This document shows positions 7,293-47,949 of a stretch of DNA of 64,000 nt, one piece after another. Source of the stretch: an uncultured Eubacteriales bacterium (lineage in GTDB: Bacteria; Bacillota; Clostridia; Oscillospirales; Acutalibacteraceae); contig CAKVEP010000007.1 in the NCBI GenBank assembly GCA_934729465.1, forward strand, positions 9,380 through 73,379. The letters run 5' to 3'. How positions within the stretch are numbered: the stretch's first letter is position 1; each line of letters begins with the position of its first letter. The notes below the pieces were generated by a model, which was not told the DNA's origin, ran no database searches, and saw only the letters and a program-made list of their open reading frames with translations. A program made the translations under genes and the position numbers.

Positions 7293-7307
7293 AGGAGATT
7301 GAAATTT

Positions 7308-26378: not shown

Positions 26379-26753
26379 ATGAATATCAAAAGAGGAGATA
26401 TATATTATGCAGACTTAAGCCCTGTTGTAGGCTCTGAGCAGGGAGGAATAAGACCTGTACTTATAGTTCAAAATGACGTTGGAAATAAATTTAGTCCAAC
26501 AGTGATAGCGGCGGCAATAACAAGCCAGCACTCAAAGGCGAGTCTTCCAACTCACATACAAATCAATGCTAAAGAGAGCGGTCTATCAAAAGATTCTGTG
26601 GTGTTGCTTGAGCAGATAAGAACGATAGATAAAAGAAGACTAAAAGAAAAAACCGGTGAAGTAAACAATGTGGAAATGAAGCAGGTAAATTATGCGTTGT
26701 CGGTGAGTTTCGGATTGGGACAACGAGAAGATTTGGCTGTTAGAGCTACATAA
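26379..26753 (+). CDS. ndoA: EndoA/MazF-family mRNA interferase toxin
   Basis: Near-collinear match to B. subtilis EndoA ([31 protein letters not shown]...). No antitoxin ORF lies in the 166-nt gap upstream. Confidence 0.8.
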
Positions 26754-28112: not shown

Positions 28113-28256
28113 AAAAACACATCTAAATACGGTTAGCAATAAATTGGGGCTCATTTCCCTTTTTTATATGTTACATAAATTTTATACATCTAAGCTAATT
28201 TTTTAAGCGAAAGGAGAGAAAGGTTCTTACTTAAAAAGTAGAGAACCGAAAGAATT

Positions 28257-29978: not shown

Positions 29979-30009
29979 TCAATAAGGTATATGAAAGGAG
30001 AGATTTATT

Positions 30010-30531: not shown

Positions 30532-30622
30532 AATAGTTTATATTGTTATATCATCCCTGTTTTGTGGGATGATATAACATGTAATATAAAAATAAAATGT
30601 AGGAAAGTAGTGTGATGTTGGA

Positions 30623-30994
30623 ATGTCAGCTTTTGAAACAGAAATAGAATTTGTATTACCTAAGGGATATGTTGATGAGAAAGGTGAAGTTCATAAAAAG
30701 GGGAAAATGCGTTTAGCTAATGCAGCCGACGAAATTATACCTTTGAATGACAGAAGAGTAAAAATGAATCCTGGATACCTTAGCATTCTCTTGTTAGAGA
30801 GAGTAATAACACAACTTGGTACGTTAGAGAAAGTGGATGCTCAAGTAATCGAGAGTTTATTTACGGCAGACATGGCATATTTACAAGACTTATATCAAAA
30901 ATTCAATGCCGTTGAACCTCAGCTTATGGATGTGACATGCCCTAAGTGTAATCACAAATTTAGGATGGACGTCCCTTTTTTCGGGGAAGCCTAA
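30623..30994 (+). CDS. Tail assembly chaperone (gpE/G-like) with C-terminal zinc-ribbon CPKC..H..; source of a -1 frameshift product
   Basis: Position between the tube and tape-measure genes. Ends with T_TTT_TTC eleven nt before the stop. Confidence 0.55.
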   Translation: MSAFETEIEFVLPKGYVDEKGEVHKKGKMRLANAADEIIPLNDRRVKMNPGYLSILLLERVITQLGTLEKVDAQVIESLFTADMAYLQDLYQKFNAVEPQLMDVTCPKCNHKFRMDVPFFGEA

Positions 30995-31191
30995 AAAGTT
31001 ATCCACAAAAAGCTCTTTATGAAGAGATAGCTTTTTTGGCTTATTATTTACATTGGTCTCATGATGAGATTAGAAACCTTAGTCATAAGGAAAGAGCAAA
31101 ATACTGTAAGGAAGTTTCGAAAATAAACAAGAAAATGAATGCAAACGGGGAAGAAAATAAAAATATTTTTGACCTCGACAACTTTGATTAA
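30976..31191 (+). promoter_or_regulatory. -1 PRF slippery heptamer T_TTT_TTC (30976-30982) plus a ~70-codon -1 frame extension to the TAA at 31189-31191 (E' segment)
   Basis: The heptamer is in the correct codon register. The -1 frame is open for 70 codons with no start codon of its own until near its end. Confidence 0.5.
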
Positions 31192-31214
31192 ACAAAAAGG
31201 AAGGAGGATTATAT

Positions 31215-32333
31215 ATGGCTGAAGAGAATAATAAACAAGGTCAGCAATTGGGCATAACTAACTGGGCAGCGAATGCACTTGCGGGGATAACAGGAAAGTC
31301 GATTTTGAAAGATAAGTATGGTAGACCCAGAATGCCGGTTCCACAAATATCGTCTGAGGAATCGCTTCGCTCTGGTGGCGCTGCTAGGTTTAGATTTATA
31401 TTAACGCTAAACAATTTTACCTATGGATTTAAAAATATAACGGGTATGAAAGTGTCTAGGAACCTCAATCCAATTTTACAAGGTGGGGTAAATGACCAAT
31501 CAATTTTTGTTGGTATGCCGGATGCTGCTGATACAGAATTAACGCTTACAAGAGGCTTTCTAATAAGGGAGTGGCCCATTGCTACGACCGCTGCATTGAT
31601 GGCAGCCTCGCAAATACCGAATAATTTATTGAGAAGAACAGCGCTTATGGCGGTTGGATTGACAGACGCTCAATATACTTTAGAGCATGGACCTGCATTT
31701 GGAGATATAAAAGTATATAATCCTCGTACTTTTGAATTGTCAGACTGGTGGACATTCATATCTTATGGAATAATAGATAGAAGTCCTGATGGTTTGGACG
31801 CATCTAGCGGAGAACCTGCTATGGAGAGTATTACCCTTAAGGTGACTGATTTAAAACAAAGGTCTGTAAAGAGAATGCCGACAAATTATAATAGCGTAGT
31901 GAAAATGTTTCAGCTAGATGATTATGAAAACGAGTTCAAGCCTTTAGGAGGGGAGACTCAAAATAAAGGCAGCCACTACACCGGCGAAGAGGAAGGAACC
32001 GGAGGAGCTTTAGGCTTGAAAGATAATACGGGTAGTAATTACACCGGCGAAGAGGAAGAAACCGGAGGAGCTTTAGGCTTGAAAGATAGCACAGGTAGTA
32101 ATTATATAAAAAAGGATAAAGCTAATGTGGAAAGAGAAGCCAAAAAAGAAGCTTTGAAAAAGTCTATGGATAAGAAAAATCTTGGAAGTAGTTATACCAG
32201 TGAAGAGGAACGTAAAGAAAATTTGAAATTAGAAGAAGCTAAAAAGAGAGCTGCTGAAGAAAAGAAAGCTGAGCAAGCTCAAAAACAAAAGGAACAAGAT
32301 GCAATGGATAAATTTATAAGCGAGAATATTTAG
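31215..32333 (+). CDS. Second tube-like protein (tube-initiator/Afp5-gp54-like N-terminal domain) with a long disordered Lys/Glu-rich C-terminal extension
   Basis: ...FRFILTLNNFTYGFKNITGMKVSRNL..QGGVNDQSIFVGMP..ELTLTRGF is the tube-fold signature. Residues ~250-372 are low complexity with tandem repeats. Confidence 0.5.
   Translation: MAEENNKQGQQLGITNWAANALAGITGKSILKDKYGRPRMPVPQISSEESLRSGGAARFRFILTLNNFTYGFKNITGMKVSRNLNPILQGGVNDQSIFVGMPDAADTELTLTRGFLIREWPIATTAALMAASQIPNNLLRRTALMAVGLTDAQYTLEHGPAFGDIKVYNPRTFELSDWWTFISYGIIDRSPDGLDASSGEPAMESITLKVTDLKQRSVKRMPTNYNSVVKMFQLDDYENEFKPLGGETQNKGSHYTGEEEGTGGALGLKDNTGSNYTGEEEETGGALGLKDSTGSNYIKKDKANVEREAKKEALKKSMDKKNLGSSYTSEEERKENLKLEEAKKRAAEEKKAEQAQKQKEQDAMDKFISENI
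31977..32102 (+). repeat. Tandem 63-nt repeat x2 inside the tube-like gene (encodes YTGEEE(G/E)TGGALGLKD(N/S)TGSN)
   Basis: Two near-identical 63-nt units seen directly. Confidence 0.7.
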
Positions 32334-32417
32334 ACATTAATTATAATTTAACTTAATATTTATGTTTAAATGTTATAATAGAGAAAGGGAAATATAGTTG
32401 GGAGTGAGTGTGATAAT

Positions 32418-35387
32418 ATGAAAAATTTAAGAATGACAAAAGGAATAACAGTTAATAGTAGCTACAGAATAGGAGCGCTCACTCGAACTAATACGTTTTA
32501 TAATAACATATCTAAAATTCATGTAAACATAGGTTTACTGCAGTCCGACGACGTAGCAAAATACGATTTCGGAAATGAGCTTATATACAATACTTCAAAT
32601 GGGTCGTTACTTGAGCAAGAGGCACTTAGAAACATAACCGACCTATTACTACAATTACGTGCTGCACAAAGTGACCAAAATGTGTTTGTACAAAACAATA
32701 CGGTTGTAAGGCAGCAGATTTTAGACCAGTTAAAACGTGAAATATTCAATGTTCAAAATAATTTAACCCAAAAAGAAGTTAAACAATTAGAGGTAGTGTC
32801 AAACAACCTCTTTGATGAAGACACACTAAATGATTTAATAAAATCTTTATTAAGCGACACAAAAAAAAAATTAGATTATAGTTGGGACCCAAAAAGCAAT
32901 AATATTGCGTTGAGAGAGCCTGAAACTTCTTTAACCAACACAAAAGCAATAACGTCTTTTAAGCCTATAGACGTTATAAAGAAGTATCAGAATATTCTTT
33001 ATAACACGATAAATAACTTCTCAACAGATAGAGTATTGCGTAAAAACAATATAATCAACAAAACAAGGTATTACGACGCAGAGCAAACAAGAAATGAACT
33101 TGTTATAAGAGAAGTCAAACAACCTGTTGAAGTAACCACGGAAGAATTTATAAGAAAAGAAAATCTAATAGAAAACCTTGAGAAGGTATATAATGAGAAG
33201 CTGTTAAAAAGGGTAGACTTTACCCCATTAGTTACTAAAACGTTTTTAAAAACGCTTGAATCGGGCGGAATAAAGAACTATAAAGAGATAGTTTCTAAGG
33301 TATGGGACAAAGTATATTTAAAGTCGGAAGTTCCGGAAACTACGCTTTTAACCCATCATAAAATAACAGACAAAATTAATTCTGTTGAATTAAAGCAGGA
33401 TTTTATAGATACCTATTTTAATAAAATATTAACTCAAGACATAACAGGTTTAACGCTCTATAAGGATATAACAAGAGCGTATAGAAGTAAGAAATTAAAC
33501 TTAAAAAATGTGTTGATAAACAACAGTAATAAGGATTTTATTGAAACAGATATACTAAAAAGGTATAACTATATAACACGTTCTGTCAATGAAAAGGTCT
33601 ATAAAAATAAGTTGCTAACTGAGGCTAATTTAATTAATAAAACAGTAGACTACGAAATAGAGCAAAACAGGAACGTGGCAAAAACCCGAAATACGTTTTT
33701 ATATGAAACAGAAGTAGAGAAAGTATATAAAAAGAGCGTGTTCAATAAAGACGTAAGGAATGAAAATCGTTTAACTACAGTAAAGTTTGAAAACGAGTTT
33801 ACAAACGTAATAGAAACGGTAGCTAAGAAGACAGCAGAAACGGTAACGCAGAATAAGCTTTTAAACCGCTATGAAAATATGATTGAAACAACAGTTGAAA
33901 GGGTGTTTAAAGATACTGTTGAAAATCGTAGAAGCAGAACTAACAGCAAGGTTATAAATAAGAAAAATGTTAAGAGCTTTAAAGACATAACTGATGTAAC
34001 TTCAAAATTATCTGTTATAAACGAGTTTGAAAAACAATATGAAAAAAGTGCGTTTAATGTAGAAAACCTCAAAGAGAGAGTATTAAACAGGAAGGCATAT
34101 CACACACTTAAAAATACGCTAAATGCCTTAGAAATTACGAATGAAAAACATTTTGATATTGTAAAACACGAAAACGAAATAATAAACAGACATAACAGAT
34201 TAGTGTCTAATATTATAGAGAACGTGGGCATTAACAGAAATATTGACAGAACAAATCTTGTAAATAAGTATGTTAAAAACGATAAAGATATTGAGCAATT
34301 AGTAAATAAAATAATTGAAAATCAACCTGATGAAAACTCAATAAAAAGCTTAATTTCAAAATCTAAAAATGTAACCACGAGTGAAATAAACAGATTAATA
34401 AATGTCAATAATTATAGAGATGTAATAAATCAAATCGATACCAATTTAATAAATAATTACAATGAAAACGAAATTAAAAGAATTATTGAAACAGAAAATC
34501 TGATAAATAGGAACGTTTCAAATAAAGTTGATATTTTAGAGTATTTGCCTCAAATACAAAAAATTCAAGAGAACATATTAAATACTAAAGAAATAAAAAG
34601 GGTAAAAGATAGAACCTACAGCTCAACCTTAGACTATGTGGACAAAATATTATCTAAAAATTTAATAGAGATTAACGAGGAGAAGATAAACGAACACATA
34701 AAAAATTACAGGGATAAAATACAAAGTAATTTAACAATTTTAAACCTTGTTGAAAGTAACGCCAAAGGTAGAGAAGTCTTTAACGACGTTGTTGAAAAAA
34801 GGTATAGAGAAAACCTGTTTGTAGAGCAGCCGAACAAGATTTTAGAAAAAATAGAAAAATTATATAACGTTAATAAGGTTGTAAATCAAAAGAAAGTTAA
34901 TGTGCTTCCTCCAACGATCCTTCAGCATAGAAGAACGAGAGTTAATGAAAATACTATCTATAGAGAAGTAGAAGAAAATCAACTTTCGTATCACACTCAA
35001 GAGGTAGAAGACATAGCAAAAGCAACGCTTATAAACGATAATGAATCTTTAAACCTCAGCAATATCACTGAGATGGTTTATAAGAAAGACCCAGTATATA
35101 ACGAGATTAAAAAGGTGGAACAAAAGCAACAGGAAGCCAAGAAGGAAGACGAAGAAAGGATAGTAAAAAGAATAGAAAGTAAAATAGCGCCGATTTTGCG
35201 TAAGGCTCAAAAAGCAGAACCTCAGGTTTCAAACGTTAAGCAGGAAAAGGGTTTAACGACAAAAGAAGTGGAAAATCTGATACAGTCTTACATAAGCGAC
35301 ATAAATGTTAGTACAATATCAAAAATTGTAATAAACGAAGTCCAGCAAAAGATGAATTTGGACCGCAGAAGAAGAGGGATAATGTAG
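32418..35387 (+). CDS. Tape-measure-like / tail-length protein (989 aa, Asn/Lys/Glu/Ile-rich, predicted all-helical)
   Basis: Located where the TMP is expected (after chaperone and tube-like genes, before the hub). Lacks the Gly/Ala-rich hydrophobic repeats of classical TMPs. Confidence 0.45.
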   Translation: MKNLRMTKGITVNSSYRIGALTRTNTFYNNISKIHVNIGLLQSDDVAKYDFGNELIYNTSNGSLLEQEALRNITDLLLQLRAAQSDQNVFVQNNTVVRQQILDQLKREIFNVQNNLTQKEVKQLEVVSNNLFDEDTLNDLIKSLLSDTKKKLDYSWDPKSNNIALREPETSLTNTKAITSFKPIDVIKKYQNILYNTINNFSTDRVLRKNNIINKTRYYDAEQTRNELVIREVKQPVEVTTEEFIRKENLIENLEKVYNEKLLKRVDFTPLVTKTFLKTLESGGIKNYKEIVSKVWDKVYLKSEVPETTLLTHHKITDKINSVELKQDFIDTYFNKILTQDITGLTLYKDITRAYRSKKLNLKNVLINNSNKDFIETDILKRYNYITRSVNEKVYKNKLLTEANLINKTVDYEIEQNRNVAKTRNTFLYETEVEKVYKKSVFNKDVRNENRLTTVKFENEFTNVIETVAKKTAETVTQNKLLNRYENMIETTVERVFKDTVENRRSRTNSKVINKKNVKSFKDITDVTSKLSVINEFEKQYEKSAFNVENLKERVLNRKAYHTLKNTLNALEITNEKHFDIVKHENEIINRHNRLVSNIIENVGINRNIDRTNLVNKYVKNDKDIEQLVNKIIENQPDENSIKSLISKSKNVTTSEINRLINVNNYRDVINQIDTNLINNYNENEIKRIIETENLINRNVSNKVDILEYLPQIQKIQENILNTKEIKRVKDRTYSSTLDYVDKILSKNLIEINEEKINEHIKNYRDKIQSNLTILNLVESNAKGREVFNDVVEKRYRENLFVEQPNKILEKIEKLYNVNKVVNQKKVNVLPPTILQHRRTRVNENTIYREVEENQLSYHTQEVEDIAKATLINDNESLNLSNITEMVYKKDPVYNEIKKVEQKQQEAKKEDEERIVKRIESKIAPILRKAQKAEPQVSNVKQEKGLTTKEVENLIQSYISDINVSTISKIVINEVQQKMNLDRRRRGIM

Positions 35388-35405
35388 AAACAAATGTTTT
35401 AAAAG

Positions 35406-36632
35406 GTGATGTGTATGGGAATTTTAAATAATTTATTAGATTCAGCGTCTAAAGGAGCCGAAGGGCGACCATTTGCCACAGTAAAATTCGGAGGGGTTGC
35501 TTGGAATTCTAAAAAAGCCGGAATATACATTATTGATGTTAACATGGGGATTAATGGAGATGCATCAACGTGTGTGATAGTGCTAAAGGGAAACCATGCG
35601 GAAGTAAGCAAAAATAAAGTAGAAATAAGCTCCGACTTTGGAAAAATAAAAATCGGAGCAAAAGTAGAGGTGTCACTTGGATATACGGGTAAAGCCCCTT
35701 CGATAAAGACAGACGTTTCACCTGTGTTTAAAGGCTTCGTGTCTGACATGGAGATAGAAATTGATTACGACAAATCGGTTACTGTGACGGTAACTTGTAT
35801 GGACGGAAAAATATGGTTAATGGCAAGTAATGAAACTAAAATTTTTAAAAATATCACAAGCTATTCAAACGCAATAAAAGCTATTTATAGCAGTAATTCT
35901 TCAAAATTTTATGGATTAAAGGTGGGCAAAACTCCAAATTTGAAGACGCCTATATATATGTGCGACGAAAGTTATTATAATTTTTGTGTTAGAGCAGCTA
36001 AGATTACGGGAAAATATTTTTTCGTGTTTTTGGGAGTGCTGTATTTTATAGATTTAAAAGGTGTTGTATCTAAAACTAAAGTCATATCGCCGTCACAAAA
36101 TGTTAGAAAAGTGACATTTAGAGCAAGTCCTTTCGGAATACCAAAATTTGTTGAAGTAAAGAGTATAAACGATAAAGATATAAATAAACCGTTAGAAACG
36201 AAGGTGAGCAAGGTTGAAGGCGGAGTAGGTTCAGGGAAGGATACCTTGGGGATGATTTCGAGTTTAAACAGCACAATTACTGTTTATGATGAAACAGTTA
36301 CGTCTGTAAAAGAAGCTCAAAATCTTGCAAATTCAATTTTAGAGCAGCGGTCGCTTAACCTAGCTCAAACTGAGTTAGAAATCGAAGGAGACCCTAAAAT
36401 AGAATTAGCATCTAAACTTAAACTGTCAGGCTTTGGAATTCCTATAGATAACTCCTATGTGATTACGGGCATACAACATTATTGTAATTTTGACTCAGGG
36501 GAATATACAACAAATATTCATTTGTCGGCTTACAAATATACACCGCAAGGGGGCGGTATAGGAGGAGCGCTTTCAGGAGCAACAGGAGCGCTTTCGGGAG
36601 CGGTAGGAGCACTTTCAAGTCTTTTAAAATAA
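35406..36632 (+). CDS. Baseplate hub protein (P2 gpD / gp27-like late control D family) with Gly/Ala-rich C-terminal tail
   Basis: 408 aa. Position and gpD-like sequence features. C-terminus GGGIGGALSGATGALSGAVGALSSLLK. Confidence 0.55.
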   Translation: MMCMGILNNLLDSASKGAEGRPFATVKFGGVAWNSKKAGIYIIDVNMGINGDASTCVIVLKGNHAEVSKNKVEISSDFGKIKIGAKVEVSLGYTGKAPSIKTDVSPVFKGFVSDMEIEIDYDKSVTVTVTCMDGKIWLMASNETKIFKNITSYSNAIKAIYSSNSSKFYGLKVGKTPNLKTPIYMCDESYYNFCVRAAKITGKYFFVFLGVLYFIDLKGVVSKTKVISPSQNVRKVTFRASPFGIPKFVEVKSINDKDINKPLETKVSKVEGGVGSGKDTLGMISSLNSTITVYDETVTSVKEAQNLANSILEQRSLNLAQTELEIEGDPKIELASKLKLSGFGIPIDNSYVITGIQHYCNFDSGEYTTNIHLSAYKYTPQGGGIGGALSGATGALSGAVGALSSLLK

Positions 36633-36635
36633 GGA

Positions 36636-37403
36636 GTGATTTATTTGTCTTATAATATGTTTTACGATATGGGTATCGGTGGCAATGGAGGTGGAAGAGG
36701 CGGTGGCAGCGGAATGAGAGGGCTAAAGCTTGGAGTTGTTACGAGCCTAAACGACAAATCAAATCTTAATAAAGTTAAAGCTCTTATTCCAGACTTGAAG
36801 CTAGAAACTCCTTATTTACCGGTTATTCAATCTATGGCCTCCAAAAAAAGGGGAAGTGTCATCATTCCCGACGTTGGAGATGTTGTGGTGATAGGCTTTA
36901 TAGGAGGAAAAATTAGTAACGGAATAATCTTGGGGAGTATATATCACAGTCAAAATAAACCGATTACTAAAGTGAATAAAAAAAATTCAATAATGAGAAT
37001 GAGAACAAAAGGCGGAATAGACATTGCTATTGACAACACAAAAGACAAACAAAAAGTTAGTGTTAAAACTCCTAAAGGTTTGAGTATGGTTTTAGATGAT
37101 AAAAAACAAAGCATAACATTGTCAGACAAAACCACAAAAAATTTTATTAAGCTTGAGCCTAAAAAGCAAAATCTTGCAATACAAACAGGTAAAAAAATAT
37201 TTCTGAAAGCCGGCTCCACTTCATTGACTCTGGAAAACGGAAAAGGACTATCTTTCAAATCTAGTCTTGGCGGTGTAAATATGAAGTGTAAAGATTTTAA
37301 AGTAACAGCCAACGCAGCCGTAAAAATTGAGGGAATGGCAAAAGCAGAGTTAAAGTCTAAAGGAGCAGCCATACTAAAGGGTACGATAAACAAAATAGGA
37401 TAA
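36636..37403 (+). CDS. Baseplate spike protein (P2 gpV / gp5 OB-fold family)
   Basis: The ...GLKLGVVTSLND...LKLETPYLPVIQSMASKKRGSVIIPDVGDVVVIGFIGG... segment matches the gpV OB-fold signature, after a Gly-rich N-terminal linker. Confidence 0.65.
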   Translation: MIYLSYNMFYDMGIGGNGGGRGGGSGMRGLKLGVVTSLNDKSNLNKVKALIPDLKLETPYLPVIQSMASKKRGSVIIPDVGDVVVIGFIGGKISNGIILGSIYHSQNKPITKVNKKNSIMRMRTKGGIDIAIDNTKDKQKVSVKTPKGLSMVLDDKKQSITLSDKTTKNFIKLEPKKQNLAIQTGKKIFLKAGSTSLTLENGKGLSFKSSLGGVNMKCKDFKVTANAAVKIEGMAKAELKSKGAAILKGTINKIG

Positions 37404-37422
37404 GTTAAGGAGGAGTGAGTTT

Positions 37423-37809
37423 ATGGCAACGATAAAAGGATGGAAGTTCCCAATTCAGGTTGATAAGGACACAGGGAAAATACAAATGATAGAAGATAAC
37501 GAAAATGTGAAGCAAGATGTTAGGATAATACTTGGAACAGAGCAATACGAACGAAAAATATATGCTAATTTCGGAACAAATACCAGGTCGTTTATGTTTG
37601 AAACGGTTGACCCTGTATTTATGACAAACCTTAAAAGAACGATTGAAGATTCCTTAAAAATTTGGGAAAAACATATATCCGAACTTGATGTTGAAGTAAA
37701 TGCTCCTCCGGGGCCAATATCAAAGGTAGAGGTGAACATAGATTACACAACCGATATTATACCTGTTCAGGAAAGATATACTCATGAGATAAACACAAGC
37801 GGAGATTAA
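37423..37809 (+). CDS. Baseplate wedge protein (gp25 / GPW lysozyme-like family)
   Basis: 128 aa. ...VKQDVRIILGTEQYERKIYANFGT... is the GPW/gp25 core. Confidence 0.75.
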   Translation: MATIKGWKFPIQVDKDTGKIQMIEDNENVKQDVRIILGTEQYERKIYANFGTNTRSFMFETVDPVFMTNLKRTIEDSLKIWEKHISELDVEVNAPPGPISKVEVNIDYTTDIIPVQERYTHEINTSGD

Positions 37810-37841
37810 GTTTAAGAAAAATATTATAAGAAAGGAAGATA

Positions 37842-40800
37842 ATGTTGAGTAATATACCAAAACTTGATGGAAGAACGTCTGGTGATATATTAGAGCAAGT
37901 CAAGAACATGGCTAAGCAATACACTCCGGAATGGAACTTCGATGAATACAGCTCCGATGTTGGAATAGTATTTTCGAAAATATTTTGCGATATGCTTGAA
38001 GGCACTATAAGCAGGTATAATAAAACGTCTTATAATTATTATCTCACATTTTTAAATATGCTCGGCACAAAACTTCGTCCTGCATCATCTGCTGAAGGAA
38101 TGATAACGGTATCAGCAACAAGGGGAGCCTACATACCAAAAAATTCTCAGCTTTCGGCAAACGCAGATACCGAAGAAGGAAGCGTTATATATGAAACTAC
38201 AGATAGTCTGTTAGCCATAAATACGGCAATCAAAGGAGTGTTTTATACCGACGGTCTTTCAGATACTATAGTAAAGGTTTGCGAGGTAGTGGATGATTCC
38301 AACGAAAAGATGAAGCCGTTTAGAATATTTGATGATGTGTCTCATGAAAATTTACAGTGTCATGAATTGTATTTCCGTGATGACACTATATTTAACATGA
38401 AAAAATCAGACATAACATTTTTATTTTACAATGAAATTTCCGAAAAGGGAGAAAAAATGTTACCGGATTTATTTTCAGATAAAACCAATGTAAAATGGCA
38501 GTATTCTATGGGAGAAAATAATTGGGTAAACATAAAAAATGTTGAAAAAGTTGACCATGGTGTGCGATTAATTTTTGAAAATAAAGTTGTAAGCGCTGAA
38601 GCGGTAAAAGAACAAAGTAGATTTATAAGATGTGTGTTTAAAAAAGCGTTGAGCGAAGAAGTTGCGGTTACGAGAATAGAATATAAATCTAATGCAAGCA
38701 ATATGACTCCTGACGATATGACGTCGGAGGACGAAGAGCTAGACAAAAATGATTTTTTCCCGTTCAAGGAACAATACAATTTATATGATTGTTTTTATTT
38801 TTCCTCTGAAGAGGCATTCACCAAAAGAGGAGCAGAAGTGAGCGTTGAGTTTGATTTACAGTTTGTAAAAATAAAAAACGAAATGGTAGACCCATCCATC
38901 CAAAGAAAATACAGAAACATAATGAGTGGTATGGATTTTGCAGACATGGAACCTTCTGATGTTATGATAGAAAAAGTTTCTTGGGAATACTGGAATGGTA
39001 CAGGTTGGGCAAAGCTTACTACGAAAAAAGAATATGAAGAGCTGTTTAAAATAAGGGAGCAAGACTACAACTCAGAAGGAATTAAAAAGGTGTTTAAATT
39101 TGTTTGTCCGGCTAATTTGACTGAGTATGTTGCAACAACTTCCGAGGGATTTTATATAAGAGCCAGAATAACTAAAATATTAAACCAGTTCAACTCTTAT
39201 GCAGACTACATTTCCCCATATATCCATAACATCAATATAACCTACGATTATCCGGTTCAGGGACATATTTGTAAAAGCGTTATGGTTAAGAATAATATGG
39301 AGGAATACCCCCTGACCGTTTACAACAATGGAGCGGTGAAGATTTTTAAAAAGACGCTCTATGAAAATCCGGCAATGTATTTTTGTTTCACAGAACCTTT
39401 GATAGAAGGAACTATACGCTTTTTCGTAGACATACAAGAGGGAATATACAGATATAATCCGTCAACGAAATGGGAGTATTGTGCCGACGATAAAAAGGGA
39501 GGATTCGTGTGGAAACACATAGATGTGTTAGACCTAACGGAAGATTTTTCTCATAGCGAAACAATAACAATGATAGGTAGAAAAGATTTTAAAGAAGTAC
39601 AACTTTTTGGGGAAACGGGATATTTTATAAGGGTTATAAACCCAGATGGAAGGTACCATACCAACAAAGACATTTCAACAAGACCGGTTATAAATAATAT
39701 AATGTTAAATGCGGTAAGGGTTGTTCAGAGGGATACTCACACACCGGAATATTTTTCTATAGTACAAAATGAAGCAAATAAAGTGTGTCAGTTGTCATAT
39801 CCGAATGCGGCGAATATAGAGGTGTGGGTTGACGAGTTTGGAGCTTTATCAACAAGCGACCAAGAAAAATATTTAGCGCTTGCAGGGGAGCAATCTGAAC
39901 CGGAATATGATGATTTGGGAATGCTTAGAAGACTATGGATAAAATGGAAACCTGTTTCAACATTGATATGTACAGGTATGTATGACAGAGTGTATGAAGT
40001 TGATTATTCAAAAGGAGAAGTCCTTTTTGGAGATGGTAAAAATGGTAAAATTCCTCCAGAGCAGTTTAGCGAAAGCATAAGAATAAATTATTCTGTGTGT
40101 AACGGTAGCTATGGAAATATCCAGTCAGAAATGATAACTGATTTTATGGAAGCAATCCCTGGAGTTAGCGGTGTTAAAAACCCTGAGCCGATAATGGGAG
40201 GCGTTGACAAGGAAACAATAGACAGAGCTGCAAGTAGAATGTTTGGACAGGTTGCAGGAGCTAACAGATTGGTTTCGCTTTCTGATTTTGAAAGTACAAT
40301 TAAATACAACGACAGAAATATATATAAAGTAAAATGTAAAGCTCATGTTGACCAAGACAGTAATCCATGTTTGGGCATAATATCTGTTGCGGTACTTCCT
40401 AGGGACTACATGCAGGGATATGAAAAATTCCAAGGGATAAAAAATAGGATTTGGAAATTCGTGGATGAAAAAGCATCGATTAATTTAGTAAAGACTTCTA
40501 AGATAAGAATTTTTGAAGTTAAGTATGTTGAAACGGTTATTAGTATAGACGTGTCTATAAGAGACTTTAATATGTATCAAGACGTTCATAAGGGGATAAG
40601 AAGAAGACTACAAAAATTTTTAAACCCGATAACGGGAAATTTCTCTGGTAAGGGATGGAATATAGGCGAATTTCCCAGAAAAGAATTTATATATAACTAT
40701 ATAAAAAATGTTCCAAACATAAAATGGATAAAGAATATAAACATATTCACCAAGGTCATAACAGAGCAAGGAAAAAAAGAAGTAGATTTTGAAAAGATAA

Positions 40801-40862
40801 GAAAAGAAAGCTTTGTGGTGCCTATTTTCGGGGAACCTGAGATTAATATTTCTATGGACTAA
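37842..40862 (+). CDS. Baseplate J-like protein (gp6/gpJ family), giant 1006-aa form
   Basis: N-terminal Baseplate_J-type region (...DILEQVKNMAKQYTPEWNFDEYSSDVGIVFSKIFCDMLEGTISRYNKTSYNYYLTFLNMLG...) followed by long extensions. Confidence 0.6.
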   Translation: MLSNIPKLDGRTSGDILEQVKNMAKQYTPEWNFDEYSSDVGIVFSKIFCDMLEGTISRYNKTSYNYYLTFLNMLGTKLRPASSAEGMITVSATRGAYIPKNSQLSANADTEEGSVIYETTDSLLAINTAIKGVFYTDGLSDTIVKVCEVVDDSNEKMKPFRIFDDVSHENLQCHELYFRDDTIFNMKKSDITFLFYNEISEKGEKMLPDLFSDKTNVKWQYSMGENNWVNIKNVEKVDHGVRLIFENKVVSAEAVKEQSRFIRCVFKKALSEEVAVTRIEYKSNASNMTPDDMTSEDEELDKNDFFPFKEQYNLYDCFYFSSEEAFTKRGAEVSVEFDLQFVKIKNEMVDPSIQRKYRNIMSGMDFADMEPSDVMIEKVSWEYWNGTGWAKLTTKKEYEELFKIREQDYNSEGIKKVFKFVCPANLTEYVATTSEGFYIRARITKILNQFNSYADYISPYIHNINITYDYPVQGHICKSVMVKNNMEEYPLTVYNNGAVKIFKKTLYENPAMYFCFTEPLIEGTIRFFVDIQEGIYRYNPSTKWEYCADDKKGGFVWKHIDVLDLTEDFSHSETITMIGRKDFKEVQLFGETGYFIRVINPDGRYHTNKDISTRPVINNIMLNAVRVVQRDTHTPEYFSIVQNEANKVCQLSYPNAANIEVWVDEFGALSTSDQEKYLALAGEQSEPEYDDLGMLRRLWIKWKPVSTLICTGMYDRVYEVDYSKGEVLFGDGKNGKIPPEQFSESIRINYSVCNGSYGNIQSEMITDFMEAIPGVSGVKNPEPIMGGVDKETIDRAASRMFGQVAGANRLVSLSDFESTIKYNDRNIYKVKCKAHVDQDSNPCLGIISVAVLPRDYMQGYEKFQGIKNRIWKFVDEKASINLVKTSKIRIFEVKYVETVISIDVSIRDFNMYQDVHKGIRRRLQKFLNPITGNFSGKGWNIGEFPRKEFIYNYIKNVPNIKWIKNINIFTKVITEQGKKEVDFEKIRKESFVVPIFGEPEINISMD

Positions 40863-40883
40863 GTATGCAGAGGGTGAGAAGAA

Positions 40884-43043
40884 GTGATAGAATTACAAAA
40901 TTTAAATAATCAATCTCTGGAAGAAATTCTTGATGACGCTAAAAGACAAATTTCTTATTTAAGCGACGAATGGACAAACCATCAAGAGGCTGACCCCGGA
41001 ATAACACTCGTTGAGTTGTTTGCTTGGCTTAAGTGGGTTCAGCATGAGTATTTAAACAGAGTATCTCCCGGAGTAAAGAAGAAGTTTTTAAAACTTTTAG
41101 AGATAGAGCCTTATAAAAACAAAGGCTCGAAAGCACTTTTACAAGTTGCTGATTTAGAAAAAGACATAAATATACCAAAGGGAACTAAATGGCAGGCAGG
41201 AAACGTAGTGTTTGAAAATCCGAAGGAGCATAGTTTAACTAATTCTGAAATATTAAGTGTTTTGTTTGAGAACCCCGATTTTTCGATGGTTTCTGAATAC
41301 TACAAGTTTGACAGAACAAGAATTTTTCATCTTTTTGGCGATAAATTCAGGTCTGTTGATAAGAATGTAAAACGTCAGTTCACGATAAATTTTGATAAAC
41401 CGTTATCAAGTAAAAAAGAGTTTGGTATTTATTTTGAAGTGTACACAGGCGGAAAATTAAAACGTAATCCGGTTAGTCAAGACGACGATTTCTTAGAAAT
41501 GGCGGAAGTGAAATGGGAATATTACGGCAAAGAAAACGGAGAGCTTGGTTGGCATGAAGTGGTTGTGAACCAAGACGACACACATAGTTTTTTATTTTCA
41601 GGCGTTGTGAATTTAACGATAAACGGTAGTATGTGGGCAAACAACGGAGTGTATTCATTAAGATGTAAATTAGTGAGCGAAGAGTATGATTTTCCTCCGA
41701 AGGTGTTAAGTATTTTAACTAATGTTTTTCAGGTGGAGCAAAAGTCAACTATGTGTGAAAACGTTACGATAAAGAAAAAAGAGCTTTCTAAGAATATGTC
41801 TGTAAAGATAAAGACCCACATGGCTATATACGGACAGCACATAGTTTATTTTAAAAAGGGAAAAAGCTGGGTACAAACAAATAATTACAGGGTAGAAAGA
41901 GACGTAGAAAAGGGAAACATCAATTTATATGTTGAAGAGAAAAATTTGAATGTAAGCAAATACGGCGAAGATGAAGAATTGGTAATGCTCGTGTCATACG
42001 ACGGCTCTATTGCAAGGAAAATGATACTTGGCAGCGGAACAGGAACTTCAGCACAATTTATTGAATTTAGAGATAAAAATGTGCTTTACGACGGGTTTGA
42101 AATATTAGTTGGGAAAACCGTGAATAATACAGAGATTTTTGATAAATGGAGAAGAGTAGATGACTTCTTTTCTTCGACTAAATATGACAAAGATTATGTT
42201 TTAGACCACACTAAAGAAATGATTACCTTTGGAAACCACGAAAATGGATACGCTCCGAGAGTGGGGAAAGACAACATAAGGCTATGTAGGCTTGAATATT
42301 GTATGGGCTCAAATTCAGACGTGAAAAAAGGCATGATAAATAAGGTTCAAACAGAGAATACAACGCTGAAAAAAGCCAGAATTAATCAAGTAACATCAGC
42401 GGTTGGAGGCAGAGATACAGAAACCATAGCACATGCCGAGGCAAGGGCAGCGGAAGTTTTTGCCGACTGCGGAAGAGCTGTTACTTTGGAGGACTACGAA
42501 AAAATTATAAACAATACTCCCGGACTGTTGTTTAAAAATGTTAAAGTGTTACCTAATTATATGGTTGGAGAGAATTGTAATGAACAAAACTGTATAACGG
42601 TTGCGGTTAGGTGGAACGACAGAATAGGACAAAATTTACCAATAAGCTATGAAAAAAATATAATGCATCAAATTGATAAATACCGTCTTATTAACACTAA
42701 AGTTAAAGTGGTGTGTCCGGAGTATATAGGCTTGATAATAAGCGGAGAAATAGTTGTAAATTCGTTTTACAGAGAGCGTGATAGGTTAATAGAAAAAAGT
42801 ATATTAAGCTATATAAACGTGGTGAACATGGAAATGGGCAAGCCGTTACATTTCGGTGATTTATTTGGCATGATAGACAATTTAGACTACGTTTCATATA
42901 CCAATAAATTATATATAACCCCAATAGGAAATTATATAGAAAAAACAGTTTCCGAGGATATAATAGTACCGCCGAACGGTATATACTATGTGAAAGAAAT
43001 AAATTTGAATTATCTGAAAAGTTCAGAAATTTATAACGATTAG
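40884..43043 (+). CDS. Second baseplate J-like protein (gp6/gp7-like), 719 aa
   Basis: N-terminus ...DPGITLVELFAWLKWVQHEYLNRVSPGVKKKFLKLLEIEPY... parallels the Baseplate_J start of the preceding gene. Confidence 0.5.
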   Translation: MIELQNLNNQSLEEILDDAKRQISYLSDEWTNHQEADPGITLVELFAWLKWVQHEYLNRVSPGVKKKFLKLLEIEPYKNKGSKALLQVADLEKDINIPKGTKWQAGNVVFENPKEHSLTNSEILSVLFENPDFSMVSEYYKFDRTRIFHLFGDKFRSVDKNVKRQFTINFDKPLSSKKEFGIYFEVYTGGKLKRNPVSQDDDFLEMAEVKWEYYGKENGELGWHEVVVNQDDTHSFLFSGVVNLTINGSMWANNGVYSLRCKLVSEEYDFPPKVLSILTNVFQVEQKSTMCENVTIKKKELSKNMSVKIKTHMAIYGQHIVYFKKGKSWVQTNNYRVERDVEKGNINLYVEEKNLNVSKYGEDEELVMLVSYDGSIARKMILGSGTGTSAQFIEFRDKNVLYDGFEILVGKTVNNTEIFDKWRRVDDFFSSTKYDKDYVLDHTKEMITFGNHENGYAPRVGKDNIRLCRLEYCMGSNSDVKKGMINKVQTENTTLKKARINQVTSAVGGRDTETIAHAEARAAEVFADCGRAVTLEDYEKIINNTPGLLFKNVKVLPNYMVGENCNEQNCITVAVRWNDRIGQNLPISYEKNIMHQIDKYRLINTKVKVVCPEYIGLIISGEIVVNSFYRERDRLIEKSILSYINVVNMEMGKPLHFGDLFGMIDNLDYVSYTNKLYITPIGNYIEKTVSEDIIVPPNGIYYVKEINLNYLKSSEIYND

Positions 43044-43054
43044 GGGGTGACGTT

Positions 43055-44209
43055 TTGGCATCAGGAGCGAAAAGTATAGTTTTAAACAGAGAAGAAGACT
43101 GGAAAGAAAAAAGCGTGTTGTTCCACATAAGTTTTGATAACGATGAATTAGTATCGGAAAACAAAACAGGTGAAAATGGAGTGTATATCTCGAACTGTTT
43201 TGACAGCGGTGAAAACGAAACAGTTTGGCATAGATTAAGATTAAACGTAGATTTACCACCCACAGGCTCGTTAAAACTTAGATTGTATGCAAGCGATGAA
43301 ACAAGCGTTATAATACCGGCTTCCGGAGGAAAGGGAATGTCTAGGGTAAATATCAACGAGTTTATATCAGACAAAAGTGTTAATATAAACAGAAAGGTTG
43401 ATATGTTTGATTACATAGGTGCGAGATTGTATGAAAATCCTAACGACGTGCTTATGTTTGACCAAGTTGGAAGGTATTTATGGGTTTGTATAGAAATAAT
43501 TAACTACGAGCAGGAAAAAACAATAATAAAAAGCATGAAAATAGAATTTCCGAGAGTGTCATTTGTTGACTACTTGCCCGAGATATATAAGGAAGGACTT
43601 AACACAGATTCATTTTTATCACGTTATTTGGGAATATTCCAAAATATATATGTTGACCTTGAAGACCGAATAGACGTTACTCCAACGAACTTTGACCCCA
43701 ATACTACAACAAAGGGATTTCTTAATTGGATGGCAGAGTGGTTCTCGATAAAGGACGCAGCGATATGGGGAGAAAAAAAGCTTAGAATGATACTTAGAGA
43801 TTCAGTTAAGATTTACAAAATGAAAGGTACAAAACGAGCCATTTCGAAGATAGTAGAGGCGTACACAGGCATTGAACCGATAATAGTTGAAAAGTTTGAT
43901 ATAAAGGAAAATCAGTATTATCAAAAGCATAAAAGCCTTATGGACGAGCTATATGGCGACAATGGATTTGTATTTACAGTTATAATAAGCGACAAATACG
44001 TTAAATCTTCAGAGGAGTATATAGAATTGTTAAGAGTAATAAATAGCGTAAAACCGATAGATTCAATATGTAACTTAGTGGTGCTGAACGACAAAATTTA
44101 TTTAGACCATCACTGTTATATGGGAATGAATTCGTATATAGCACAAAATCAAAATCTTGTTATAGGAGAAGGTCAGCAGGATTTAAACACATTAATGATT
44201 GCAGAATAA
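43055..44209 (+). CDS. Tail protein I (P2 gpI family)
   Basis: ...DYLPEIYKEG...FLSRYLGIFQNIYVDLEDRI...FLNWMAEWFSIKDAAIWGEKKLRMILRDSVKIYKMKGTKRAISKIVEAYTG... is the gpI signature. Confidence 0.65.
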   Translation: MASGAKSIVLNREEDWKEKSVLFHISFDNDELVSENKTGENGVYISNCFDSGENETVWHRLRLNVDLPPTGSLKLRLYASDETSVIIPASGGKGMSRVNINEFISDKSVNINRKVDMFDYIGARLYENPNDVLMFDQVGRYLWVCIEIINYEQEKTIIKSMKIEFPRVSFVDYLPEIYKEGLNTDSFLSRYLGIFQNIYVDLEDRIDVTPTNFDPNTTTKGFLNWMAEWFSIKDAAIWGEKKLRMILRDSVKIYKMKGTKRAISKIVEAYTGIEPIIVEKFDIKENQYYQKHKSLMDELYGDNGFVFTVIISDKYVKSSEEYIELLRVINSVKPIDSICNLVVLNDKIYLDHHCYMGMNSYIAQNQNLVIGEGQQDLNTLMIAE

Positions 44210-44241
44210 AATAAAAAAATAGCGTTAAAGGAGGACTTGCG

Positions 44242-44550
44242 GTGGAAAAACAAATGTTAGATAAAATTGAAGCTTTATTAAACGACGAAGACTTTATGAT
44301 GGCATTGTTGGCGCAAGACACAGCTGAAGATGTGAAGGCACTATTTTTACAGCAAGAAATAGAGCTTTCGGATGAATATGTGGAAAATCTGGGGAAAATG
44401 CTAGTAAAGCTTCTAACAAGAGGCGGAGAACTCACAGATGAAGATTTAGCTGAAATTTCCGGGGGAAGAGATTTCGGAAGTCGGATTAATTTGGACTTTA
44501 TAAATAATTTAAAAAATGATGTATCAATTGGAAACTGGCTTAAATTTTAA
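44242..44550 (+). CDS. Small protein with Nif11-like leader domain and double-glycine motif (...ELTDEDLAEISGG) followed by a 27-aa C-terminal peptide RDFGSRINLDFINNLKNDVSIGNWLKF
   Basis: N-terminal ~55 aa match the Nif11/N11P leader pattern (L.K.EALLNDEDFMMALLAQDTAEDVKALFLQQEIELSDEYVE). A GG motif is positioned as in N11P RiPP precursors. GGAGG RBS upstream. Confidence 0.5.
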   Translation: MEKQMLDKIEALLNDEDFMMALLAQDTAEDVKALFLQQEIELSDEYVENLGKMLVKLLTRGGELTDEDLAEISGGRDFGSRINLDFINNLKNDVSIGNWLKF

Positions 44551-44586
44551 ATAGAGATATAAAATATTTGAGAGGGGTATAATGAT

Positions 44587-46377
44587 ATGAACAATAAGCA
44601 GTATTATTCGTGTGAGCGTAATCATTACTTTTTTGGTAAGCTTATGACCGTAAGGGACTTTGAGAGTGAACAAATTTACTTCAACTCAAAAAGACGCCTT
44701 ATAAACAGAATGTTAAACGGAGTTGGAATAGTTTCGGGACTAGACGTAATTCTTGTTGACAACAAAACATTTTCACTTGAACCGGGAATGGCTCTTGACT
44801 ACATGGGAAGAGAAGTGGTGGTTTCAGAGCCTTGTATTAGACGTTTAAATGTTATTGAAGGGTTTGAAGAGAATAAGGACAAAGGAATATTGTATTTATG
44901 CATTAGATACAAGGAAGACTTAACAGAAACAACCTTTTCAGTTGCAGGGTCAGGCAAAAATAGTGGTGTTGGTGAGGAATATAATAGAATATCAGAAAAT
45001 TATGAGTTATTTTTAACCCCGACGGCTCCAAATGAACAAGAATTAAAGCTTGATAATTTAGTAACGCAGAAGATAGAATTATACAATAAAGACGGAATAA
45101 AAATTATTTTGAATGCATCAAGATATGTAAATCCTGGCAAATGTATAAAAATGTCGGTAACGTTTGAAAAGGAAAATGTTGAAGCTCCGGTTAAATATTC
45201 GTTTGACATTGGCGGAGAGTTCTTTAGAAACACAAACGGAGATAAAAAATTTAAAGTTGAGTATCAGGAATCAGAGGTTTCAACATATAAATCGAATACA
45301 GTAGATTTGTTTATGTATTGCGACGCCACAGTTGATGCACTTTCGAATTTAATTGTAGACAAAGATTCATTTAAATTAACCGTTGGAAAAGATGAATTTT
45401 CTATAGAAAAAGATATAGAAATTCCTGTGTCTATAAAAAACACTCCAATACGTGATTTGATAACGAATGATTATTACGCTAAGCATTTTGTAGACACAAT
45501 AGAAAATGTTGACGGAAAAGAAATTTATCTTGCAAAATTCCATATAGTAACGAACCAAATCACATATTTTATAGAAGGATTTGAAAAACATCCGTTTAAA
45601 CAGTATTTGTTTAGCAACGAGCTGATGAGAGTGCTTGAGAACGTCGACGTAGACAACCTTAAAGCTCCGGTTGTTGATAATGAAAAATTTATATCAAAAG
45701 AAGTTAATCCAGAGGTAAAGGAAATCCCCGAGCCGAAGATAGACAACATTATGACAGGCGTTGAAAGAATAAATTTAGGATTTAACCCTAAGGTTGGAAA
45801 ATCCTATTATTCATATGAGTTTGTACATGGTTTAGGAGAAGGGAATGTTGCCGTAGTAACAGCGATAGACAACAAGGCTAATTATCTCACAGACGAAAAA
45901 GGCTTATTAGTGTTTGGAGACAAAGGTATATTTGGTAAAGAAGAGATAAGTGTGTCTGCGCCAAACGTACAAATAGCAGCAATAGCTAACTCGGAAAAGG
46001 GTACGATACGTTTAGGAGTAAGGCTTGTTGAAAAAACAACAGCTCAGGCAGTAGACGTGCGCTGGTGGGCGTTCAAGCCTGTTGAAACCATTAAACCGGA
46101 AGAAGACTTAGCTATAGATGAAGACATAAAGGTTGTTATAACGCCAAACACAACGAGGGTAAAACCGCTTGAGAAGGTAAGGTTTGAAGCACATATTGAA
46201 GGGTCAAACAGCCAAGAAATACGTTGGGCAATGGCTGAAAGTAATACCGGAACGATAGACAATAATGGACTATACTCAGCACCGGCAAAAGAAGGCGTGT
46301 ATGAAATAAAGGCATACAGCGTTAAATTCTCAGACAAGAGTACTTCAGCTTATGTTGTTGTAAGTTCAGCAGAATAG
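44587..46377 (+). CDS. Putative tail fibre / receptor-binding protein with C-terminal Ig-like (Big_2) domain
   Basis: Last gene of the cluster, 596 aa. The C-terminal ~90 aa have a Big_2-like pattern (VVITPNTTRVKPLEKVRFEAHIEGS...NGLYSAPAKEGVYEIKAYS). Confidence 0.45.
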   Translation: MNNKQYYSCERNHYFFGKLMTVRDFESEQIYFNSKRRLINRMLNGVGIVSGLDVILVDNKTFSLEPGMALDYMGREVVVSEPCIRRLNVIEGFEENKDKGILYLCIRYKEDLTETTFSVAGSGKNSGVGEEYNRISENYELFLTPTAPNEQELKLDNLVTQKIELYNKDGIKIILNASRYVNPGKCIKMSVTFEKENVEAPVKYSFDIGGEFFRNTNGDKKFKVEYQESEVSTYKSNTVDLFMYCDATVDALSNLIVDKDSFKLTVGKDEFSIEKDIEIPVSIKNTPIRDLITNDYYAKHFVDTIENVDGKEIYLAKFHIVTNQITYFIEGFEKHPFKQYLFSNELMRVLENVDVDNLKAPVVDNEKFISKEVNPEVKEIPEPKIDNIMTGVERINLGFNPKVGKSYYSYEFVHGLGEGNVAVVTAIDNKANYLTDEKGLLVFGDKGIFGKEEISVSAPNVQIAAIANSEKGTIRLGVRLVEKTTAQAVDVRWWAFKPVETIKPEEDLAIDEDIKVVITPNTTRVKPLEKVRFEAHIEGSNSQEIRWAMAESNTGTIDNNGLYSAPAKEGVYEIKAYSVKFSDKSTSAYVVVSSAE

Positions 46378-46418
46378 TATTATTAAAGTATAAATTAAAA
46401 GCGAATAATTGAAAAAAC

Positions 46419-46462
46419 AAGCTCATGCTAAAATTTACTTTAAGCATGAGCTTTAAATTTTA
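46419..46462. terminator. Bidirectional rho-independent terminator closing the tail cluster (11-bp stem aagctcatgct/agcatgagctt)
   Basis: Perfect 11-bp stem with a 13-nt loop, flanked by A-runs upstream and T-runs downstream. Confidence 0.65.
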
Positions 46463-46651
46463 TAGTTTGTTAATTTCTATCCATTTTCTCGCACGGTTCA
46501 CGTTTTCATCTGAGGCAATAGGAGTGTTGCTGTTAGGCAGCTTAGTGTTAGGATAAATTTCAGGTATTGCTAATTTGCTTTGCGGTTGAGAATTTATCAA
46601 ATTTTTGATAAAATTATGATTTTTAAAATGTTTTGGCTTGTATATCCCCAT
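46460..46651 (-). CDS. Hypothetical small protein (63 aa), convergent to the tail cluster
   Basis: ORF with an AGGA RBS-like motif. No family assignment. Confidence 0.2.
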   Translation of the reverse strand: MGIYKPKHFKNHNFIKNLINSQPQSKLAIPEIYPNTKLPNSNTPIASDENVNRARKWIEINKL

Positions 46652-46794
46652 AAAAACACATCCTGATATAAAATTTATGCATTAAAGACATAAATATATT
46701 TTCCCCGATTTTTTAATATGCATACACAATTTTTGTAAGATTTATCACACATAGTTTTTTAAAAGCAAACATAAACATTAATAAAAACGTTGGA

Positions 46795-47949
46795 GTGATA
46801 AATTTGAGAAAAATCAAAAAAATTTGTAGTATAATAATAGCTTTTTGTATAGTGATAGCAAGCACGGTTGAGGTTAGTGCAGAAAACGAAATAGAAGTAA
46901 CGGCACCGAGTGCTATTTTAATGGAGCAAAATACAGGGAAAGTATTGTTTGAAAAAAACGCAGATGAAGTTCGTACGGGAGCTTCGCTAATGAAAATAAT
47001 GTGTTTACTTATTGCTATGGAACGTATAGATGAAAATAAGTTATCTTTAACCGAGACAGTAACAGCGAGTGATAATGCAGCAGAAGTAAAAGGAGCGGAT
47101 GTGTGGATAAAATCGGGAGAAAGCATGAAAGTGGAAGATTTAATAAAAGCGATTGCGATGGTTTCGGCTAATGACGCCACGGTTGCGTTGGCAGAAAGAA
47201 TTGCAGGTTCGGAGCAAAAATTTGTTGAAATGGAGAACGAGAAGACAAAGCAACTCGGAATGCAAAACACGGTATTTAAAGATGCAGTTGGTTCTGAGGA
47301 GAGCGGAAGTGTGACAAGTGCAAGAGATGTGGCTCTTATGTCGAGAGAATTAATGCGATACAAAAATATAATACCCTACGTAACGTCGTGGATAGACCAC
47401 CTAAGAGATGGTCAAACACAAATAGTAAATACGAATAAAATGGTCAGAACCTATCAAGGAACAACAGGTCTTAAAACGGGAACGAGTGAAAAATCAGGGA
47501 GCTGTATATCTGCAACGGCACAAAAAGACGGAATGGAATTAATAGCTGTGGCGCTTGGGTGCAGCAACAGTAAAGACAGGTTTAAAGACGCAACCGTTTT
47601 ATTAGACACCGGATTTTCGGAATACAAATCAATTAAACCCAGACTTCCTGAAGATATACCTAACTTTATAAAGGTGAAAAATGGTATGCAAAGCGAAGTT
47701 GAGCTGACAACTGAAGTCGATGGAGAGTTCCTTGTTAAAAAAGGTGAGGAAAAATCGATTTCGTGTAGCGTGGAGCTGAAAGAAGAATTAACAGCTCCCG
47801 TATCTAAGGGAGAAGAAGCGGGTAAACTTATTTATAAGCTCGGAGATGAAATCCTCGCAGAGTATGGTATATACACAATTTATGATGTGGAACAGGTTAA
47901 TTTTAAATCTGTGTTTAATGGGATAGTGTTGCAATTTTTGAAATTGTAA
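46795..47949 (+). CDS. dacF: D-alanyl-D-alanine carboxypeptidase (low-molecular-weight PBP, DacF-like)
   Basis: Signal peptide, SxxK motif (GASLMK), peptidase S11 N-terminal region and PBP5 C-terminal domain. Confidence 0.8.
   Translation: MINLRKIKKICSIIIAFCIVIASTVEVSAENEIEVTAPSAILMEQNTGKVLFEKNADEVRTGASLMKIMCLLIAMERIDENKLSLTETVTASDNAAEVKGADVWIKSGESMKVEDLIKAIAMVSANDATVALAERIAGSEQKFVEMENEKTKQLGMQNTVFKDAVGSEESGSVTSARDVALMSRELMRYKNIIPYVTSWIDHLRDGQTQIVNTNKMVRTYQGTTGLKTGTSEKSGSCISATAQKDGMELIAVALGCSNSKDRFKDATVLLDTGFSEYKSIKPRLPEDIPNFIKVKNGMQSEVELTTEVDGEFLVKKGEEKSISCSVELKEELTAPVSKGEEAGKLIYKLGDEILAEYGIYTIYDVEQVNFKSVFNGIVLQFLKL

Follow-up and report, generated by a model that had tools for sequence, protein, structure and literature searches.

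A predicted Nif11-like double-glycine precursor gene inserted within the operon of a clostridial contractile injection system

The gene at 44242-44550 of the 64,000-nt stretch of DNA analyzed here (the window) appears to encode a divergent clostridial Nif11-like double-glycine precursor, because it has 170 relatives, its leader matches a leave-query-out HMM that ends at GG75, and its predicted cleavage motif is intact. Residues 1-75 are very probably a divergent member of the Nif11-like (N11P) leader family, in a clostridial branch that for the most part lacks annotation. The gene stands between cis12 and cis13 of an extracellular contractile injection system (eCIS), where it is almost certainly a lineage-specific insertion.

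Results

Position and start of the precursor gene

Translation yielded the 102-aa ORF and every amino acid stretch quoted for it in the preliminary description, the quoted leader stretch being residues 6-48. The ORF is on the + strand, as is the entire eCIS operon, 32 nt past the stop codon of the 43055-44209 gene and 36 nt ahead of the ATG of the 44587-46377 gene. It is laid out as follows:

44227-44234, + strand: ribosome-binding site AAAGGAGG, read from the sequence; strong, 7 nt 5′ of the GTG
44242-44550, + strand: precursor gene, 102 aa plus stop codon
44245-44418, + strand: Nif11-like helical leader domain, residues 2-59, with four predicted helices (AlphaFold2 and family leader profile)
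44428-44466, + strand: putative double-glycine motif ELTDEDLAEISGG for recognition and cleavage, residues 63-75; predicted cut after G75
44467-44547, + strand: predicted core peptide RDFGSRINLDFINNLKNDVSIGNWLKF, residues 76-102, 27 aa; no Cys, no Thr, net charge +1

The start codon is GTG. An alternative ATG at codon 5, which is the start in the gene call of the near-identical sequence P0001, lies 19 nt from the ribosome-binding site, and GTG is the likelier start because its spacing is 7 nt. The phmmer alignments of some homologues begin at query residue 1. An antisense 91-aa ORF (44160-44435) was considered as a gene and set aside as low-complexity and unsupported.

Homology of the leader

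A word-indexed protein search with the precursor returned P0001 (98% identical) as its sole match, so that an exhaustive HMMER search was needed to reveal the family. Searching 1.84 billion representatives, phmmer found 170 matches at E ≤ 1e-3 (best remote match: 1.8e-8), nearly all confined to query residues ~5-77; the matched proteins are 75-178 aa long. The common leader of the family reads ...LLxDxxFxxxLxxxxTxEEVxxxFxxxGxELSxEExxxLGxxI...GELSEEDLxxVxGG, and the GG supplies the sole invariant columns of the family alignment (A2, 71 sequences); past the GG, the tails are highly variable and unrelated to one another. Among 71 sampled relatives, TIGR03798 matched 56 (E ≤ 0.01; best 1e-9), the class IIb bacteriocin model TIGR03949 matched 16, spanning the cleavage site, and PF10439 matched 14. 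The profile search also recovered P0169 and P0170, which their source names Nif11-like leader RiPP precursors, while most of the 26 profile matches and all near relatives carry no source name or Pfam domain.

The preliminary description had proposed TIGR03798 and PF07862 as the check on its assignment of the leader, and this check failed on the precursor itself: TIGR03798 gave 12.1 bits (E 0.18) against a curated cutoff of 32.3, aligning query residues 4-75 to model positions 5-68 of 68, and PF07862 gave no match at E ≤ 1. The bacteriocin-type GG signal model TIGR01847 scored 15.2 bits over residues 63-75 (E 0.025; cutoff 15.7). The ten closest relatives reached 18-35 bits on TIGR03798, only one of them above 32.3, and of the members tested none was farther from the Nif11 model than the precursor. 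As a control against circularity, the leader HMM was built anew with the query and P0001 left out. The new profile gave the precursor 88.0 bits (E 1.7e-29), its residues 5-75 aligning up to the profile end at GG75; the runner-up among 2,380 ORFs from the window and related loci scored 7 bits. Judged from these sequence comparisons, the resemblance of the putative leader to the family is far beyond chance. The assignment to a Nif11-like double-glycine leader is thus upheld through transitive homology (the 170 relatives and the 88-bit profile match), whereas the direct curated models leave the precursor below cutoff.

With A2 as the alignment, AlphaFold2 predicted a structure with a mean pLDDT of 79 and helices at residues 2-13, 16-23, 28-36, and 44-59. 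The N-terminal 59 residues are predicted to form a four-helix domain (pLDDT 75-91), with a further helix over the GG motif (66-73) and another within the core (84-93). The leader, with a net charge of -13, is strongly acidic.

Cleavage motif and predicted core

The second motif ending in GG that had been noted before was found at residues 63-75, ELTDEDLAEISGG. Counted back from the predicted cut after Gly75, its residues at -4, -7, and -12 are Ile, Leu, and Leu. It is established that Nif11-type GG leaders are recognized by peptidase-containing ABC transporters (PCATs) and modifying enzymes (PMC6363468). One such PCAT, from Lachnospiraceae, has the C39 domain LahT150, which processes nine Nif11-type precursors; substrate mutagenesis placed recognition within the last 13 leader residues, where -4, -7, and -12 are critical and -3, -5, and -8 tolerate change (PMC6363468). 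The residues of ELTDEDLAEISGG would satisfy all recognition requirements of LahT150. Of 168 family leaders, 166 have GG as their last two residues, precisely where the profile stops, and the hydrophobic pattern at -4, -7, and -12 is conserved.

Core lengths across the family range from 3 to 105 aa. The precursor core showed no significant similarity to other family cores (blastp-short), including those of P0016, P0014, P0059, and P0053, which look alike by eye, and it resembles no characterized bacteriocin. Trp occurs within the last six residues in ~45% of family cores (76/168), often as ...RRW or ...GW; the core in the window ends in NWLKF. The tail had been described as a 27-aa, Cys-free, amphipathic peptide. 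Its length and lack of Cys stand, but its amphipathicity does not exceed that of shuffled sequences: the best 18-mer has a hydrophobic moment (muH) of 0.43, which 28% of shuffles reach. The core is weakly cationic, and lanthionine and sactionine cross-links are excluded because it contains neither Cys nor Thr.

The closest counterpart set beside it, by description, is LahA1-9/LahT of Lachnospiraceae bacterium C6A11 (PMC6363468), likewise from a clostridial host. In both, a long Nif11-type leader ends in a double glycine with hydrophobic residues at -4, -7, and -12, and in both families paralogues share one leader and carry diverse cores. Unlike the solitary gene in the window, which has no transporter in view, the LahA genes are clustered with a lanthipeptide synthetase and a transporter, and the window core, lacking Cys and Thr, cannot be a lanthipeptide. 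The prochlorosin and synechococsin precursors ProcA and SyncA (TIGR03798; PMC10783134) share the Nif11-like leader, the GG site, and hypervariable cores, and their genes too may stand singly among unrelated genes and be processed in trans (PMC10783134). They are, however, cyanobacterial, with Cys/Ser/Thr-rich cores modified by ProcM, and relative to these archetypal N11P precursors the window leader has diverged (12 bits on TIGR03798), while its core is not lanthipeptide-capable. Class II bacteriocins (class IIb lactobin A/cerein 7B; TIGR03949, PF10439, TIGR01847) resemble the precursor in their LSxxELxxIxGG-type signal, which in the precursor is borderline on TIGR01847, and in a short, unmodified, Cys-free core, as predicted here. 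Their leaders are about 15-30 aa long, in contrast to 75 aa with a folded domain in the window, and the window core, unlike class IIb peptides, is neither Gly-rich nor hydrophobic and has no adjacent immunity gene.

The operon that holds the gene

Genes of a contractile-tail machine span about 27.1 to 46.4 kb of the window:

27126-28112: 328-aa protein, matching none of the Pfam, NCBIfam, or PHROGs families
28257-29978: sheath (Phage_sheath_1 and 1C)
30010-30531: tube (TIGR02241)
30623-30994: tail-assembly-chaperone-like ORF (phrog_508)
31215-32333: second gp19-like tube protein
32418-35387: 989-aa protein, matching none of the Pfam, NCBIfam, or PHROGs families
35406-36632: baseplate-hub-like protein
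36636-37403: spike (Phage_base_V)
37423-37809: gp25/gpW-like protein
43055-44209, + strand: Cis12/gpI-like baseplate protein, upstream neighbor of the precursor gene (PF09684, 5.3e-10; NF053768 CIS12_fam, 1.8e-38; TIGR02242, 1.2e-24)
44210-44586, + strand: cis12-cis13 interval holding the insertion, 377 nt (44-87 nt in relatives)
44587-46377, + strand: Cis13-like putative fiber protein, last gene of the operon (NF053767 CIS13_fam, 6.3e-28, residues 9-154)

The cluster also contains two large Baseplate_J-like proteins in tandem (1006 and 719 aa), and the C-terminus of the Cis13-like protein has a weak Big_2 match. Placement of the precursor gene between gpI and the fiber gene, as previously described, was confirmed by the Tail_P2_I/CIS12 matches upstream and by the CIS13 match to the N-terminal part of the protein downstream. 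Because the contractile-tail genes are flanked by housekeeping genes (asd, dapA, and dapB plus a mazF-like gene upstream; a PBP5-type carboxypeptidase gene and pgi downstream), the cluster is a chromosomal eCIS. It shares with Afp/PVC/Streptomyces-type systems (Cis1-16; PMC8213781) a sheath, tube, spike, gp25-like protein, two gpJ-like proteins, Cis12, and Cis13 in the usual order. No AAA+ ATPase (Afp15/Cis15-like) domain was found among the eCIS ORFs scanned (27126-46377). The mazF-like gene (26334-26753; NF007386, E 3.8e-10), directly upstream of the eCIS, would encode a MazF-like endoribonuclease toxin, and no obvious antitoxin ORF is listed with it.

A prophage-like head and tail module occupies 1-17.6 kb, apart from the eCIS:

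2503-4182: TerL
5488-6684: portal
7299-8462: major capsid
11717-13657: tape-measure-like protein
13983-14705: Gp10_C-domain protein

Since ~9 kb of housekeeping genes separate this module from the eCIS, the window contains two independent phage-derived elements. Three ORFs of exactly 240 aa (1247-1969, 13983-14705, and 16881-17603) were compared as possible repeats; they align with gaps at 21-24% identity, and their equal length is a coincidence.

A single-lineage insertion between cis12 and cis13

Starting from the Cis12 and Cis13 proteins, we retrieved 20 related eCIS loci out of clostridial MAGs and metagenomes. Both genes were present in 18 of them, with Cis12 36-70% and Cis13 44-78% identical to those of the window, and in all 18 the cis12-cis13 gap was 44-87 nt with no ORF inside. 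No member of the leader family occurred in the fetched flanks of any of the 20 loci. In the alignment, the insert lies directly after the cis12 stop codon and before the ancestral cis13 ribosome-binding region; it measures roughly 340 bp and carries its own ribosome-binding site. The only other carrier is a 1.7-kb ENA contig (L009) with the same context and 99.4-99.7% DNA identity, and degenerate-pattern scans of JGI metagenomes and IMG/VR returned no close relative of the peptide. These comparisons point to a recent, single-lineage insertion, not a conserved eCIS component.

Between the window and L009, the ORF differs by two nonsynonymous and no synonymous changes, T65P (44434-44436, leader position -11) and L84F (44491-44493, core), and the adjacent 1.25 kb of cis13 differs at four sites, all synonymous. 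There is no sign of purifying selection on the ORF in these changes, the counts being too small to test.

The insert is native in composition (GC 0.350, vs. 0.349 for the eCIS). It bore no signature of a mobile cassette, that is, neither DNA similarity to other family loci or elsewhere in the window nor an anomalous composition. An AT-only 8-bp direct repeat, ATAAAATA, brackets the insert (44206-44213 and 44559-44566) and is the sole flanking repeat. In DNA this rich in AT it is compatible with chance, its chance probability being estimated at 25% at least, and the ancestral gap it would imply, 24 nt, is shorter than that of any relative.

Promoter and terminator scans around the precursor ORF gave results at or below shuffle expectation, and a terminator-like hairpin was found at 46526-46541, past cis13. 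Because neither a terminator nor a convincing promoter accompanies it, the precursor gene is probably cotranscribed with the late eCIS genes cis12 and cis13. An Rfam search of both strands of 42000-47500 returned only a sub-threshold Ocean-VII match within cis13 (45258-45284; 20.2 bits vs. a gathering score of 53.5, E 0.017), which is most likely a chance match.

Family members elsewhere and the missing transporter

In the wider family, two short contigs (L010 and L011) bear three to seven paralogues in tandem, alike in the leader but not in the core. On longer contigs the precursors are solitary among housekeeping genes: after polC (L013 and L017), beside fhs (L015, L019, L020, and L034), and after murA/ftsQ (L033). 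The same chromosomal site, after polC or beside fhs, holds different cores in different genomes, which suggests diversification in place. On L010, a 92-aa sigma-70-region-4-like gene (70-348) is directly upstream of six or seven tandem precursors (644-2894) and may serve to regulate that array specifically.

No C39 peptidase or bacteriocin-type ABC exporter was found among the window ORFs scanned, which agrees with the earlier statement that none is encoded nearby. That absence had been presented as an anomaly, a view that the family does not support: in eight contexts with flanks of ~5-10 kb per side where the contig allowed, none of the eight members had a C39/ABC transporter beside it, so absence of a transporter is typical of the family. 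Scattered solitary N11P precursors among unrelated gene families are documented in cyanobacteria (PMC10783134). There is likewise no small immunity-like gene by the precursor; the 377-nt interval holds only the precursor ORF, and both flanks are eCIS structural genes.

Discussion

We hold with moderate confidence that the gene is a dispersed Nif11-like precursor whose product is processed in trans by a PCAT and whose core is secreted, and that its location in the eCIS is incidental. The precursor would be transcribed together with the late eCIS genes and recognized in trans, through the C-terminal helix of its leader, by a PCAT whose gene lies at another place in the genome. Cutting after Gly75, this PCAT would release and export the 27-residue core, which would most likely act unmodified, as a class-II-type bacteriocin or a signaling peptide. 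Because no PCAT adjoins any family member examined, it is only from the motif that we infer PCAT processing, and we consider this processing and the secretion of the core slightly favored. The gene, one of a dispersed kind, would have come to lie in the operon by accident, and the precursor is best read as neither a component nor a chaperone nor a cargo of the eCIS particle.

The location itself raises two particle-related readings. A tail-fiber assembly chaperone or baseplate adaptor for the Cis13-like fiber might be expected directly upstream of the fiber-like gene, and this position is all that speaks for such a role, which is extremely unlikely. The site is not the usual slot of a fiber chaperone, as the preliminary description had it, given that cis12 and cis13 are directly adjacent in the 18 related loci; and because the gene is absent from these loci, their Cis13 proteins must assemble without the precursor product. 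Searches of Pfam, NCBIfam, and PHROGs with the precursor ORF matched no chaperone family (PHROGs gave no match at all), Foldseek against the PDB gave no match below E = 1 (best E ≥ 1.4), the predicted fold is not chaperone-like, and the homology to a leader-peptide family is clear. Neither outcome that the preliminary description had named as refuting its reading, a chaperone-family match together with the lack of a Nif11 match or a chaperone-like fold docking to the fiber, was obtained. It is also very improbable that the peptide is coupled to the eCIS, as particle cargo or as a toxin or signal released with particles at lysis, its leader perhaps being removed in some other way. Residence in the operon and probable coexpression would fit such coupling, but the gene is missing from the related eCIS loci, the other family members examined are all in non-eCIS contexts, and the leader is strongly acidic and of a family that serves for recognition by PCATs and modifying enzymes (PMC6363468). 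An insertion confined to one lineage lends no comparative support to a functional link with the particle, and the earlier suggestion of a bacteriocin-like cargo or maturation peptide of a tailocin-like particle is likewise unsupported. Known eCIS effectors, unlike this peptide, are proteins, usually encoded downstream of the structural genes, and a RiPP or bacteriocin precursor has not been described as an eCIS component. The eCIS survey (PMC8213781) does not mention bacteriocin precursors, and our literature search found no paper connecting Nif11 leaders with contractile injection systems. The placement is thus unreported, and the comparative data indicate that it is incidental.

Two further readings leave the particle aside. 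The gene could be a functionless or decaying orphan copy that landed in the operon and is passively transcribed, with no working transporter or no selected activity. It occurs in one lineage, it is the farthest from the Nif11 model of the family members tested, no immunity or transporter gene is nearby, and both of its differences from L009 are nonsynonymous while the four in cis13 are synonymous, in numbers too small for a test. We nevertheless think this unlikely: the frame, the strong ribosome-binding site, the full-length leader, and all critical residues of the GG motif are intact, the composition is fully native, and family members that look intact usually stand alone as well. Alternatively, the product might stay uncleaved in the cell as a Nif11-domain protein with a C-terminal helix (a regulator or membrane-associated factor), the GG serving as a linker. 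The four-helix domain predicted for residues 1-59, the lack of a transporter beside any family member examined, and the many family tails that look like single transmembrane segments are in keeping with this. The invariant GG, placed exactly at the boundary between conserved and hypervariable sequence in 166 of 168 members, the conserved pattern at the positions that C39 requires, the class IIb bacteriocin matches across the cleavage site (16/71), and the tandem arrays, whose hypervariable cores are usual in families of secreted peptides, all tell against an uncleaved protein, which we regard as decidedly improbable.

The tempting story of a bacteriocin cargo or fiber chaperone for a tailocin-like particle is removed as unsupported, and the gene is relevant to eCIS biology only if its placement in the operon is functional. 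There is a very slight chance that the insertion was adaptive, coupling a diffusible peptide (toxin, signal, or priming factor), perhaps particle-borne, to particle production or release; if so, it would be the first link between a RiPP/bacteriocin-type precursor and a contractile injection system. For the family, the result means that Nif11-like double-glycine precursors have a large branch in clostridia that lies mostly under the curated cutoffs and so goes unannotated, and that genome mining seeded on biosynthetic enzymes or transporters will miss such solitary genes. Precursor genes of this kind appear to spread singly into intergenic gaps, even within a tightly packed structural operon.
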